Sequence record: OR449013 | Strand: one strand, 5' to 3' | DNA: 64,000 bases | From: Escherichia phage Mangalyan | In this document: piece by piece, positions 58,116-62,746 of the stretch | Layout of the letters: every line of letters begins with the position of its first letter | Position numbering within the stretch: position 1 is the stretch's first letter | The notes under the pieces: model-generated | Database searches by the model: none | Told to the model about the DNA's origin: nothing | Seen by the model: only the letters and a program-made list of their open reading frames with translations | Position numbers and translations under genes: made by a program

Positions 58116-58631
58116 TCACCTCAGAAGATGGTCGTCAACACTTTTGTACTCTACTACAACCACATCAATATCTGTGGTTGCAAGATTAATTACATCTTCT
58201 ACATGTTCCCACTTTAGACCTCCAATACCGCATCCGATTTTAGGAATGTAGAACGGCAATGACATACCTTTGAATACCTCGTTGACTCGCTCAAAACCTT
58301 TCATGATTGAGAAGTATTCAGCATTGGGCCCTGGGTAGAACTGGGTATACAGGTTGATTCCATATACGACCCTGGCCTTGGCAAAATGCTCCCAACAAGA
58401 AAACATACCCAGCTTGTCTAGATTACCATAAGCAGTCTCTTTGTCGGCTGCCAGTGCTTGAGGGAACTCACGGGCAATATCTTTCGCTATACCTGCACCC
58501 ATTGTGTGAAAGCAGTTACAACCGTGGATCATGTGGCCTGACCCTTTCTTGAAAATGGAGATTAGATCTCCCTTTACAGTATCAATAATCACGGTATTCC
58601 AGCTCCTCTTCTGCAATTTCCAAAAACTCAT
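58116..58631 (-). CDS. macro-domain protein (ADP-ribose binding / processing)
   Basis: GDLISIF ... IHGCNCFHTMGAGIAKDI and IPKIGCGIGGLKWEHV match macro-domain N-x6-GxG-I-A and G-x-G-G loops; start placed at internal ATG 58631 to limit overlap. Confidence 0.65.
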   Translation of the reverse strand: MSFWKLQKRSWNTVIIDTVKGDLISIFKKGSGHMIHGCNCFHTMGAGIAKDIAREFPQALAADKETAYGNLDKLGMFSCWEHFAKARVVYGINLYTQFYPGPNAEYFSIMKGFERVNEVFKGMSLPFYIPKIGCGIGGLKWEHVEDVINLATTDIDVVVVEYKSVDDHLLR

Positions 58632-59007
58632 CCCAACCCTGTGGCATATTTGAGTTGCCGAAGTGGCTTTCGTAGTAGAGATTTTTACCACTTGGAAGGT
58701 AGAAATCTGTTACCTCATAGAATCCACAATCGTCGCACTCACCTTCTTCAAACTTGGCCTCAACCTTAATACCGAGGAAGGTGAAAAGTTTATGGATATC
58801 TTCAGTTTCGAACTCCCAGTGAATGTTGTTTTCCGCATCGGTGTAGAACTGGATCAGCAGACCATTGTCCAGTTTACCAAAATACTCTGTGAAGTAACTT
58901 CCTTCCCAGAAATCTTTATGACAAATAATATCCATGCGTTTGCCCATAATAATGGTGTGAGCGTTTTGGGCATCGTCACGAATCAGTTTTGGCATTTCAT
59001 AGGTCAT
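58582..59007 (-). CDS. hypothetical acidic protein (141 aa)
   Basis: ORF; ATG preceded by GGAGAAC. Confidence 0.5.
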   Translation of the reverse strand: MTYEMPKLIRDDAQNAHTIIMGKRMDIICHKDFWEGSYFTEYFGKLDNGLLIQFYTDAENNIHWEFETEDIHKLFTFLGIKVEAKFEEGECDDCGFYEVTDFYLPSGKNLYYESHFGNSNMPQGWDEFLEIAEEELEYRDY

Positions 59008-59273: not shown

Positions 59274-59368
59274 GGGCAGTGGCCTCCTGTTAGTTATACA
59301 TCCCAGTTTTCTTCGTTCATCACGTCCTCCCGTCTATGAAGTTATAATTGCACACCTTTCAACCTGTG

Positions 59369-59785
59369 TCAACAGAAAACTTCAACAAACTCTTCCACAG
59401 TTTTAATGTCGTGGGAAAAAGGTTTACGGCTATAACGGGCAATAGCACTATCAACCACCGCTCGGTACTCAAGATCTTCAGAGTATTTCATGAAGCATTG
59501 CAGTGTTTCTGGACAGATAGCTAGATAGCTCCACCACCCTTCATCAGATTGATAGTCAAAGCCCATGCTCTCCAACCATGAAGCATATACGCCTGCACCT
59601 TCCAGCCAGTGAGTATTTTCATCCAGAAACTTGTTAACAGACATGTGAGCTTCTAAGCACTTGTCCAGCTCTTTTCCGTTAACCAGCCACGCACTAACTG
59701 TGGCGCATCCAAGGTCTACAGATTGAGTTGACAGGTTGTATTGGTCATAGTTCTCAGGTTTAACAATGATATCTTCTAATGTCAT
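59369..59785 (-). CDS. hypothetical protein (138 aa)
   Basis: ATG preceded by AAGGAGATC. Confidence 0.5.
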   Translation of the reverse strand: MTLEDIIVKPENYDQYNLSTQSVDLGCATVSAWLVNGKELDKCLEAHMSVNKFLDENTHWLEGAGVYASWLESMGFDYQSDEGWWSYLAICPETLQCFMKYSEDLEYRAVVDSAIARYSRKPFSHDIKTVEEFVEVFC

Positions 59786-59847
59786 TTTTCAGATCTCCTT
59801 ATACAAAAATGCCCCACCCTTTCGGGCAGGGCTATGTTAGTTAGGTG

Positions 59848-60471
59848 CTAAAAGTATTCATAGAGGTATCCATCGGGGGCTGGAATTTTTTCATGAATGT
59901 AGTAATCAACACATATTCCGGTTTCTCTTCTACAAGAATTGTGGGATACCCATTCTTTAAGAACGTTTCCATTCATGTCCAGCCTTCTTACATTTTTACA
60001 CCGTCTACCGCTGGTGCTTCTATGCAACAGAATATCCTCCGTCTGCTTGTCTTTATTTTCTCCCCAGGTCGTTAAACGGATATTATCAAAAGAGTACCCT
60101 TTGAAATCATCTATCCTGTCACAAGAAGGCTTTTTCCTTTTGTCGTATCCGCTGGCTACCCACTGATCATACAACTCTTTGTAACCGTTCAGGTATAGCC
60201 ACTCCTTAAACTCTTTTTTGGTGTAAGTCGGAGGAGGGTGGCCTCTTTGCTTGCTGTTGCACTTTTGAGCCTTGTACAGCACGCGTATTACACCTTTTTC
60301 TGAAGAGTCGTGGGAAAACCTGTCAGCCTCCCTGCTGGCCTTCTTGCAACACTCTTTGCACTTATTAAGATGACCGTCAGACATCTTTGGGTGTTTGTAG
60401 AACTCGGAGAGGTTTTTCACCTCTCCGCACTTGATGCACCTCTTACAATGCGTGGATTCTGCTTTTTCCAT
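59848..60471 (-). CDS. HNH-type homing endonuclease-like protein (free-standing)
   Basis: N-terminal zinc ribbon CKRCIKCG ... CKEC and [28 protein letters not shown]-like core; start placed at MEKAE (ATG 60471); overlaps 3' end of upstream gene. Confidence 0.55.
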
Positions 60472-61714
60472 ATTGCAAACCCACCGGAGCGAAAGGTATG
60501 TCATCACAGAAGTCATACTGTGCTGGATTCTGATCCATCGGGTCATCTTCCTCGTCATTTACAGGAGGAGCGTCTACAGTGTTTTGCTGTGGAGCTGCTT
60601 CCTGTTTGGCAGCTTGAGGTTCTTGATGGTCAGTGGACCCAGCACCGTTCTTGATCCAATCGTACAACGGCTCAGCCAGATTAGTCAAGACATCTTTTGC
60701 TTCTGCAGTAATTGCCGCTGCAAAATCATCAACTTTCGTTTTCTTGTCAATACGGCGACAAGCGTTCAACACCGCATTGCCGACACTGGCACCTACTTCA
60801 TCTTCAGTTCGGTTGGTGGCTTGAGCATACTCTTTCTTAAGCTCGATGGTGACTACGTGCAGTGTTTTAGCCACGCCTAGTGGGTCGTCTACCTTAAACC
60901 CACGATCCAGGATGATCTGCAACGCATTGATGCTATGCCCCGTCTCCACACCAATAGGGTCGTAAGAGGATTTACGCTTGCCACCAGGGCCTTGAGTGCC
61001 GTTCTCTGCCTTAGGTGGGTAGGCTTTGAAACCACTGATAATGTTTCCGGTGTCTTTGTCCACAATGGCTGCAACACGACCGCCTACCACCAGGTCTTTA
61101 AGCTGCTCATCAGTTACAACCATAGCACCTTCGCCAATCTTGTGGTCATTTACAGTAACCACGTTGCCAACAATCTGAGTCACATCACCATAGATGCGTA
61201 AAACGTCCTGATTGGCATTCTGCTGAGGTTTCTGCTTCTGGCCTTGTGATTGTGCACCTTGTTGCTGTTTTTGCTGCTGAGTCGCTGCTGGAGCCTCTCC
61301 TGCGCCCAGCTTAACCATCTTAGCCAGTGAGCCTTTGTAGTAGGTCTTACCGTTATGCTCGTTTGCCTTCAAAGGGATATTTACGATCCATCCTGGCGTT
61401 ACGGTTTCCCACTTGTCATCAATCTTAACAGAGACAGAGTCTTGATGACCCGGTTTAAGCAGTTTATCACCCATGCTGATCCAGACTTCTTCACCACCTT
61501 GAAGCAGGTTATCAGAGGAATCCAGTTCAGAAATCAGTAAAGAGATGGTGTGGCTGGACTCAATTTTCTTACCTTGCCACACAGTGGTTTTAATACCTGT
61601 TGTAGGATCAGCACCTTTGATAGGCTTGATGCTGACGCGTTTAATCATGCCGTGAGCCAGTAAAACAGTTTCACGCGGATTCATCGGGTTAGCGAATTGT
61701 TGAATAACGCTCAT
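60443..61714 (-). CDS. hypothetical protein with Gln-rich linker and SSB-like acidic motif DFCDDIPF (possible ssDNA-binding protein)
   Basis: 423 aa; low-complexity [22 protein letters not shown]; DDIPF (the conserved SSB C-terminal tip) lies 15 codons before the stop. Confidence 0.5.
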
Positions 61715-62079
61715 TATTTGTCTCCTTGTTCTTCGTTAGTGTTTGCCGTGTGTGCAAACCCTGCTTGAATTAATTTGTCCTGAACTTGAGCCAACAGGCC
61801 CATTGCAAAACTTGTGGTCCCAGAGAGGGCCATCAGCATATCTCGTTGTTGAGCTACCCAACCTAAGGCATAGTCCAAACGACGATATTTTTCTTCTTCA
61901 CGCAGAGCCTGAAATAATTGTTCAGCCTCCGGTTGTTGTGTGAGCTCCTGAAGTCTTCCCATGAAAGAAGAAAGCACTAGCAAAAGAGACACTTGATCTT
62001 TACTTAACCCTAAGAAAAATTCTTGAGGTTGTTCTTGCTCGTTCATCGCAACCGACGCTTGATCGTTCATTTGTTCCAT
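61714..62079 (-). CDS. hypothetical protein (121 aa)
   Basis: ATG preceded by ATCGGAGATTCC; overlaps downstream start. Confidence 0.5.
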   Translation of the reverse strand: MEQMNDQASVAMNEQEQPQEFFLGLSKDQVSLLLVLSSFMGRLQELTQQPEAEQLFQALREEEKYRRLDYALGWVAQQRDMLMALSGTTSFAMGLLAQVQDKLIQAGFAHTANTNEEQGDK

Positions 62080-62162
62080 TATGGAATCTCCGATTTTATT
62101 TGAACAACATAGAAGGAGACACTATTTTAGCATCCCCTTCTGTAAATTACAATAGGTATTTG

Positions 62163-62408
62163 TTAGCCAATCACTTCGAAAGTTCCCCAATTCCCGTCCA
62201 GCAGGCAGGTGATCGGATCCCCATCGTCGTCAAAGATTTCAAAGTTTTCAGCATCCAGGATGTGGCCCTCGAACACAATACTTTCGTCGCCACCACCAGA
62301 AATAACAGCGTATTCCTTACCTTGAGTCAAGTTTTGACACCCTTTGCCACCAAAACCTACTTCAACACAACGTACTTTCTGTCCTGCGCGAGCAACTACT
62401 TCAGTCAT
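62163..62408 (-). CDS. hypothetical protein (81 aa)
   Basis: ATG preceded by TCAGGAGACC. Confidence 0.5.
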   Translation of the reverse strand: MTEVVARAGQKVRCVEVGFGGKGCQNLTQGKEYAVISGGGDESIVFEGHILDAENFEIFDDDGDPITCLLDGNWGTFEVIG

Positions 62409-62425: not shown

Positions 62426-62746
62426 TTAATCGTCAAGTTCAAAATAGATTTTAACAGCTTCATCAAAGATTGGAATCCCGATGTTGTTAATAAGCTGCCA
62501 AACTACCATATCTTTACCTGGGTCGGGGAGAATGTCAACCTTTCTCCATGCGCTGTATATCCAGTTCGGACCACCTTCTGCACTAACTGGCAGATTTTCA
62601 CCAGCCTCCTGCAGATACTTATACAGCAAAAGATATTCTGGATACTCTAGAACACTGTCCTCTGTAGTATATAGCAGTTCACGGTATACTTTTAAGAACC
62701 CTGCGGGGGTGATGTTTTCAGTCTTCATTTGCTGCTTCTCCTGCAT
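62426..62746 (-). CDS. hypothetical protein (106 aa)
   Basis: ATG preceded by AGGAGAAGCAGC. Confidence 0.5.
   Translation of the reverse strand: MQEKQQMKTENITPAGFLKVYRELLYTTEDSVLEYPEYLLLYKYLQEAGENLPVSAEGGPNWIYSAWRKVDILPDPGKDMVVWQLINNIGIPIFDEAVKIYFELDD

Follow-up and report, generated by a model that had tools for sequence, protein, structure and literature searches.

A conserved peptide behind the C-terminal tip of phage SSB-like proteins, overlapped in Vequintavirus by a mobile gene for a predicted homing endonuclease

Introduction

The C-terminal tip of single-stranded DNA-binding proteins (SSBs) is a hub that recruits more than 12 genome-maintenance proteins, and the free Phe at its end is regarded as indispensable. 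Escherichia phage Mangalyan (OR449013), an rV5-like coliphage of the genus Vequintavirus, raises the question of what it means when such a tip is not the end of the protein. In the 64,000-nt stretch of this phage that we analysed (the window), a gene codes for an SSB-like protein with the tip sequence YDFCDDIPF, continues for another 15 codons and runs into the start of an HNH-type homing-endonuclease gene (HEG). A first-pass annotation had proposed that insertion of the HNH gene extended the C-terminus of the SSB-like protein, which would mask its tip.

We favour a different explanation, with a probability of about three in four: in the Vequintavirus locus, an HEG separates the SSB-like coding sequence from its terminator, and the extension is an old conserved module rather than a product of read-through. 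The presence of an HNH gene beside the SSB-like gene is ordinary phage biology. The point of interest is the conserved module that follows the tip on many phage SSBs.

The SSB-like protein and its tip

The 2.2-kb region of the locus is 98% identical to those of vB_EcoM_10C2_SA_NWU, JES2013, rV5 and similar phages, and the SSB-like protein shares 99% identity with gp209 of rV5. Translation confirmed the layout described in the first-pass annotation, namely a 423-residue open reading frame (ORF) with a Gln-rich stretch (residues ~141-169) and the YDFCDDIPF tip, followed by exactly 15 codons and overlapping the start of the HNH ORF by 29 nt (Table 1). The gene keeps its position between the phrog_7310 and phrog_8967 genes, in synteny with rV5 and Bas49-59.

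The protein has no match in Pfam (E up to 0.1) or NCBIfam (E up to 1), and the PF00436 profile did not match it. In PHROGs, it has a full-length match to phrog_4477 ('unknown function', E 1.9e-173) over residues 1-408, and this profile stops exactly at the Phe of the tip. An AlphaFold2 model built from 43 homologues (mean predicted local distance difference test score, pLDDT, 73.8) has a beta-barrel at residues 1-140. The predicted structure contains an OB fold of the SSB/RPA kind, and its closest structural matches are true SSBs. The four-helix bundle of the model is proposed to form an oligomerization interface. Residues 362-423 are disordered (pLDDT <50).

The tip is not a chance occurrence, since it is the only D[DES][IVL]PF motif within the six frames of the 64-kb window, it aligns with the Pro and Phe (P407/F408) that are invariant at the C-terminus of the 43 homologues, and the phrog_4477 profile ends at residue 408. 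Neither a second tip motif nor a second HNH copy was found in the window. HNH-free relatives end in FDDDIPF followed by the stop codon, the same as the last seven residues of the host SSB, and the window has FCDDIPF, with Cys replacing one Asp. As in E. coli SSB (MDFDDDIPF-COOH), an OB-fold core is followed by an acidic disordered tail that leads to the tip. Unlike E. coli SSB, the window protein has an internal tip with Cys for one Asp, a core that is not PF00436, and two barrels with a four-helix bundle. The Phe of the tip is internal in the window protein and in those of 31 phage records, and it is terminal in ~84 of the 115 related records.

A preprint of April 2026 (bioRxiv 10.64898/2026.04.29.721553) describes Bas52_0087 as 'SSB-like' and assigns it two OB folds and the tip FDDDIPF. 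According to the same source, the substitution D252V or Y351C in this protein lets Bas52 escape the DRT10 reverse-transcriptase defence, which is tuned by the tip-binding exonuclease SbcB (ExoI). Bas52 is phage RudolfGeigy, and its bas52_0087 gene (QXV84166.1) shares position and neighbours with the window ORF and is thus its orthologue. The two proteins are ~98% identical, with the same domains and with D252 and Y351 conserved; D252 is nearly invariant in the alignment of homologues. In contrast to the window form, Bas52_0087 stops at the tip after 408 residues, and its gene is not followed by an HNH gene. Bas49, Bas50 and Bas54 have the extended form, of which the preprint makes no mention. 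The SSB-like identity of the protein, already reported there, is supported by our analysis; binding to single-stranded DNA (ssDNA) and oligomer formation are predictions, both here and in the preprint.

In the rV5 genome paper, a T7-like, PolA-type polymerase and a gp4-type helicase are listed, and no SSB. Given these replication proteins and the lack of any other annotated SSB in rV5, the SSB-like protein is most likely the replicative ssDNA-binding protein of the phage, whose tip would engage host partners, phage partners or both.

The extension within the rV5-type family

We collected 70 homologues of the SSB-like protein (26-99% identity) by comparison of the whole protein, and this set is free of motif-selection bias. 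All of them either end at PF or continue with [AS]P[VI]GLQY and 7-10 further residues.

Several members of the family carry the extension with no HNH gene downstream. In Serratia phage Kashira (L005), the stop codon is followed by a terminator and a convergent tail-fibre gene. Salmonella phage SSBI34 (L006) and an E. coli-associated phage contig (L053) are similarly devoid of a downstream HNH gene. In an 83%-identical close relative (L049, 3755-3882), the extension is kept and the HNH gene is reduced to remnants of ~25 nt and ~20 nt. HNH-free relatives had been expected to terminate at DDIPF if the insertion had created the extension. This is the case for ~65 near-identical records, which stop at FDDDIPF, but not for Kashira, SSBI34, L053 and L049. 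The first-pass annotation had itself named an identical extension in HNH-free relatives as the observation that would speak against its proposal, and the finding of such relatives refutes a read-through origin; the same extension is also found on unrelated SSB families (see below).

In a neighbour-joining tree of the protein cores (tails removed), the deep branches are mostly extended, and tip-only proteins are dominant only in the crown Vequintavirus-like group. Both tail states are present in several subclades. Within Vequintavirus, the extension occurs only with the HNH gene or a remnant of it, and the two move as one unit of ~640 bp.

The extension on other SSB families

A search with a profile of the tail identified fragments named 'single-stranded DNA-binding protein' by NCBI in E. 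coli, Salmonella, Proteus and Tatumella, with PPMDFDDDIPF-APIGL[QP]Y near their ends. This protein search gave short fragments only; a DNA-pattern scan of viral contigs and a search of a library of representatives were added. The scan of IMG/VR for D-I-P-F-A-P-[VI]-G-L-Q-Y yielded 38 loci, whose proteins include PF00436 SSBs of several subtypes, phrog_44 SSBs, phrog_3284 and phrog_24909-like proteins, and short rV5-type members. The search with a hidden Markov model, which covered 1.84 billion cluster representatives exhaustively, yielded 46 clusters at E up to 0.001. In all 46, the tail match is located at the C-terminus or at most 6 residues from it, and proteins of 335-480 residues with other architectures are among them. 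Named phages with the motif include phi92 (gp156), members of Phapecoctavirus, Proteus phage Mydo, Klebsiella phage Seu621, the lambdoid phage mEp013 and Vibrio phage Val-yong3. When one genome per bacterial species was scanned, only eight exact motif matches came up, and seven of the eight were in Gammaproteobacteria.

A set of 83 distinct extensions gives the motif A-P-[IV]-G-L-Q-Y-[PGA]-x-x-[LAIF]-[LI]-[HYN]-[CAV]-[IML]-COOH, with a length of 14-16 residues in all but one. The 15-residue extension of the window fits this motif, with AP[IV]GLQY straight after IPF and a hydrophobic C-terminus. The tip that precedes the cap remains MDFDDDIPF in the capped proteins. Another type of capped tail is APIGLQYPALLNCM. 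Judging from these sequences, the extension is a conserved, portable C-terminal module present on at least five sequence-unrelated families of SSB-like proteins in phages of Gammaproteobacteria. A full-text literature search for 'IPFAP', the string at the junction, brought up no paper of relevance.

One of the fragments found with the tail profile comes from a lambdoid Proteus prophage (L009, 5695-6231), in whose recombination module a canonical SSB gene with the extension is split by a stop codon into an 82-residue PF00436 part and a 76-residue tail part.

Selection on the extension

Among the phages with both the extension and the HNH gene, there are six synonymous changes and one replacement, of His by Tyr, in the 15 codons of the extension. 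In the HNH protein, these nucleotide changes alter residues 2 and 4 (E/A/V and A/V, respectively). Comparisons with the 83%- and 76%-identical relatives revealed seven and eight synonymous codon changes, respectively, with three conservative replacements in each case. For the first seven extension codons of ten rV5-type members, 315 pairwise comparisons gave 173 synonymous differences versus 34 non-synonymous ones, the latter being V/I or A/S. This excess of synonymous differences in the SSB frame, together with the variation of the HNH residues, indicates that the peptide is conserved rather than the DNA and that the SSB frame dominates in the overlap, which points to strong purifying selection.

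The HNH gene is mobile and probably codes for a homing endonuclease

The HNH protein belongs to phrog_1035 (E 1e-40). It has no Pfam match at E 0.1 and no NCBIfam match, and some of its relatives have matches to the NUMOD-type domains PF22083/PF07453. It is composed of a Cys4 zinc ribbon (residues 9-41, with four invariant Cys), a putative PacI-like beta-beta-alpha-Me core with conserved residues (D118, R119, D122, Y126, N130 and N139, i.e. D-R-x-D...G-Y...N...N) and a NUMOD-like C-terminal domain. Its AlphaFold2 model (pLDDT 91.8) has PacI (3ldy) as the top Foldseek match (E 0.011, probability 0.98). The phmmer comparison with PacI is weak (E 0.3), and the nuclease motif has no canonical His.

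The HNH gene is present in 50 of the 115 matching phage records and absent from ~65, and three alleles can be distinguished. The first, with neither insert (EduardKellenberger, FV3, RudolfGeigy; ~65 records), has Y[AS]FDDDIPF and the stop codon, then 62 nt with the terminator, then the next gene. In the second, with the HNH gene only (WalterGehring, HeinrichReichert; ~19 records), YEFDDSIPF-TGA is followed by GAGG and an HNH ORF of 192 residues. The third, with the extension and the HNH gene (the window, rV5, EmilHeitz, DrSchubert, MaxBurger and others; 31 records), has YDFCDDIPF, 15 more residues and the overlapping HNH ORF of 207 residues. Among the BASEL phages, Bas49, Bas50 and Bas54 have the third allele, Bas51 and Bas58 the second, and Bas52, Bas57 and Bas59 the first.

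The insert starts right after the codon of F408, and the stop codon of the HNH gene replaces the old stop. Differences linked to the type of allele are confined to ~25 nt on the upstream side of the junction and ~10 nt on its downstream side, and other polymorphisms are common to all types. In Vequintavirus, the differences between HNH genes linked to the extension and those free of it are limited to the first ~130 and ~85 nt. Irregular forms were also found: one locus (L050) lacks the insert and has a stop after the extension-linked tip YDFCDDIPF, phage JEP1 (L060) has a hybrid tip one codon short, and phage V18 (L064) has a broken, decayed HNH gene. The gene's presence or absence at one site in near-identical genomes, the short type-linked tracts and the decayed or recombinant forms indicate that the HNH gene is mobile. 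By all appearances it is an ordinary free-standing HEG, gained and lost by recombination or homing. We rejected the possibility of a group I intron or an intein: there is no Rfam intron match in 59300-62300 and no downstream exon, as the stop codon and the terminator come directly after F408 in the HNH-free allele.

Like the free-standing homing endonucleases of phages (of the T4 Seg/Mob type, or I-HmuI-like with NUMOD), the HNH gene occupies one fixed site, with differences clustered at the junction and relatives of NUMOD type, and like PacI the protein has the D-R-x-D...G-Y...N...N core and Cys4 zinc sites. Unlike them, it has neither the canonical His nor a Pfam match, and its gene overlaps the host gene; its cleavage activity is a prediction.

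The HNH gene has no promoter of its own and shares the terminator of the locus, and it is probably co-transcribed with the SSB-like gene. This terminator lies directly 3' of the stop codon of the SSB-like gene in HNH-free phages, and the same one is present in all three allele states. The Tyr-Gly codons (TAT GGA) of the extension's GLQYG motif supply the ATG of the HNH gene. This ATG is the nearest possible start, with no other start codon before the first conserved Cys. As its ATG is made of extension codons, translation of the HEG is probably coupled to that of the SSB-like gene.

Association between the extension and HNH genes

In a sample of ~50 extension-bearing genes, most are followed by unrelated genes (coding for methyltransferase, RdgC-like or VRR-NUC-like proteins) or by a terminator. 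At four loci (L010, 6176-6600; L038; L045; L047), a gene that overlaps the end of the SSB gene codes for a protein with a Cys4 zinc ribbon of the window type but with a canonical HH...CxxH nuclease domain. The extension-bearing SSB genes at these loci belong to four different SSB families. In addition, a 29-nt stretch, CAATATGGAAAAAGCAGAATCCACGCATT (60446-60474 of the window, minus strand), which takes in the extension's second half and the first eight codons of the HNH gene (MEKAESTH), is identical at L032 (4713-4741), in an unrelated 54-kb phage contig. The overlapping downstream ORF there codes for a different protein of 97 residues, and the flanking codons have diverged.

These associations are consistent with a family of zinc-ribbon HEGs that would tend to establish themselves at the 3' ends of SSB genes with the extension. 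Recombination at the 3' end of the SSB gene would carry the extension along, and a tip-only Vequintavirus gene may thus have acquired the extension and the HNH gene as one unit.

Origin and possible function of the extension

Taken alone, the rV5 group would fit an HNH insertion that abolished the stop codon after DDIPF and left 15 accidental residues masking the tip: without the HNH gene, its phages terminate at FDDDIPF, and one indel holds both the extension and the HNH gene. Such a read-through is hardly tenable in view of the same motif in HNH-free relatives and on unrelated SSB families, its fixed length of 14-16 residues and its near-saturated synonymous change; moreover, the second form of HNH insertion (as in WalterGehring) has its own stop codon, and the tip stays terminal. 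The extension might instead be a passenger without a role for the SSB, as part of a mobile unit of zinc-ribbon HEGs that target SSB 3' ends; the extension would persist because it carries the ribosome-binding site and start codon of the HEG and destroys the homing site. The constant company of the HNH gene or its remnant in Vequintavirus, the ATG and Shine-Dalgarno-like sequence inside the extension codons, the overlapping zinc-ribbon HNH genes at L010, L038, L045 and L047 and the stretch identical to the unrelated L032 all speak for a passenger. However, what follows downstream is other genes or a terminator at about 30 of the 38 viral motif loci and also in Kashira, SSBI34 and L053. Furthermore, the first seven codons, before the HNH ORF begins, are the most strongly conserved, the conservation operates at the level of the protein and not of the DNA, and in the overlap the SSB frame has synonymous changes where the HNH frame has non-synonymous ones. 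A pure passenger is therefore improbable. Some points do weigh against the view of the extension as an old conserved module. Several sets of extension-bearing proteins were collected with a pattern or profile that contains the motif, so that its invariance is partly by construction, and only the rV5-type family is unbiased. The tie to the HNH gene or its remnant in Vequintavirus, and to overlapping zinc-ribbon HNH genes at four other SSB genes, means that a selfish element may have contributed to the spread of the extension. Finally, the AlphaFold2 model of the tail is without structure (pLDDT ~30) and shows no contact of the extension.

As for the function of such a module, the extension would make the terminal Phe of the tip internal and offer a new hydrophobic C-terminus. 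To our knowledge, every solved complex of an SSB tip has the free carboxylate of the terminal Phe bound, and an addition of 15 residues should thus block or change the binding of the tip. That the extension masks the tip, as the first-pass annotation had it, is plausible. The tip remains intact in the capped proteins, which argues against simple inactivation, and the altered tail would change the partners recruited rather than simply destroy the tip. A switch of partners or a cap is the option that we tentatively rank first, although at clearly less than even odds. In a more elaborate and more doubtful scenario, the cap would stop phage-coated ssDNA from recruiting the host's tip-dependent ExoI, RecQ or RecJ or from tripping DRT10-like defences, or it would redirect the tail; zinc-ribbon HEGs would move the cap between unrelated SSB genes, and its presence in Bas49, Bas50 and Bas54 versus its absence in Bas51, Bas52, Bas57, Bas58 and Bas59 would represent a defence/counter-defence polymorphism. 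The text and supplements of the DRT10 preprint contain no per-phage values comparing phages with and without the extension, and other defence papers that mention Vequintavirinae concern other genes. Ranked next, as an outside chance, is a propeptide or a degron: a protease would remove the extension to expose IPF-COOH, or the hydrophobic C-terminus would mark the protein for turnover. Once processed, the tip would function as usual. The tip that stays MDFDDDIPF in capped proteins would be hard to explain if it were permanently disabled, and the fixed length and the non-polar end ([HYN]-[CAV]-[IML]) also fit, as C-terminal protease tags likewise end in non-polar residues. Nevertheless, neither a protease site nor evidence of processing was found, and the conservation of the AP[IV]GLQY core goes far beyond what a simple spacer or tag needs. 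The pure passenger comes after these options. It is similarly unlikely that the protein is not the phage SSB, but another OB-fold factor (a recombination mediator or a decoy) that uses a mimic of the tip to titrate the partners of the host SSB. The absence of a Pfam SSB match, the unusual combination of two barrels and a helical bundle, and a sole experimental phenotype that is a defence trigger linked to ExoI dosage are in favour of this view; the closest structural matches, which are true SSBs, the lack of another annotated SSB in rV5 and the presence of the same tail modules on canonical SSBs argue against it.

Two further candidates were rejected. A frameshift leading to an early stop after F408 is not supported, as the other two frames have no nearby stop. 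The consensus of the beta-clamp-binding motif is QL[SD]LF, and QYPALL/QYGKSR in the extensions lack the Leu at position 4 and the spacing of the terminal Phe/Leu.

A comparison can be made with other phage SSBs. T7 gp2.5 has a tail with a specificity of its own and a C-terminal Phe. In the SSB of HK620, the tail NDYPPF is needed for Sak4 (PMC5928155). As in these proteins, a short C-terminal peptide on a phage SSB would decide the partner. Unlike them, whose tails end at an aromatic residue, the window protein has a second conserved peptide after it. A conserved peptide of fixed length after the Phe of the tip, in at least five families, would represent a new layer of control over the SSB hub. 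The BASEL collection holds natural, near-isogenic phages with and without the cap, and the protein that carries it is a known trigger of DRT10, a defence tuned by ExoI.

Features of the locus and neighbouring genes

Table 1. Features of the SSB-like gene and the HNH gene in the window
Feature	Position	Strand	Basis or remark
SSB-like gene, 423 aa	60443..61714	-	Orthologue of rV5 gp209/ORF214 and Bas52_0087; phrog_4477
Residues 1-140, N-terminal beta-barrel (OB fold 1)	61295..61714	-	AlphaFold2 model
Residues 141-169, Gln/Lys-rich disordered linker	61208..61294	-	pLDDT <50; sequence
Residues 170-235, second small beta-barrel	61010..61207	-	AlphaFold2 model; named OB-fold-2 in the preprint on Bas52_0087
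Residues 253-355, four-helix bundle	60650..60958	-	AlphaFold2 helices 253-270, 278-300, 304-321, 328-355
D252/Y351, positions of DRT10 escape mutations in Bas52	60650..60958		Assigned to the bundle segment
Residues 362-399, disordered acidic Pro/Gln-rich tail	60518..60631	-	pLDDT 28-39
Residues 400-408, YDFCDDIPF, mimic of the SSB C-terminal tip	60491..60517	-	Sequence and homologues
Residues 409-423, conserved post-tip extension ('cap'), 15 codons	60446..60490	-	Sequence and homologues
Stop codon TAA of the SSB-like ORF	60443-60445	-	
29-nt overlap between the end of the SSB-like ORF and the start of the HNH ORF	60443..60471	-	
GGTGGG, putative Shine-Dalgarno-like sequence	60480..60485	-	Within the extension codons, 8 nt upstream of the HNH ATG (60471)
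Free-standing HEG, 207 aa, rV5 gp208/ORF213	59848..60471	-	Annotated 'endonuclease'
Intrinsic terminator GCCCTGCCCGAAAGGGTGGGGC and T run	59811..59832	-	

Four ORFs downstream of the HNH gene, a gene (58116-58691, minus strand) codes for a Macro-domain protein of 191 residues (PF01661, E 6.5e-6, above the curated cut-off), which may be a counter-defence enzyme that removes ADP-ribose. On the other side, a protein of 106 residues (62426-62746, minus strand) matches DUF7238 (E 3.4e-7), and a DUF7238 gene is similarly placed upstream in L049, L050 and L053. A weak Hammerhead_II match at 61097-61136 (minus strand; 21.8 bits versus a gathering score of 37, E 0.32), inside the coding region of the SSB-like protein, was taken as a chance match. 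Lastly, 16 GenBank records (MG0656xx) named 'Campylobacter phage', with C. jejuni as the host, are 97-98% identical to the rV5-like coliphage region, and their host label looks doubtful.

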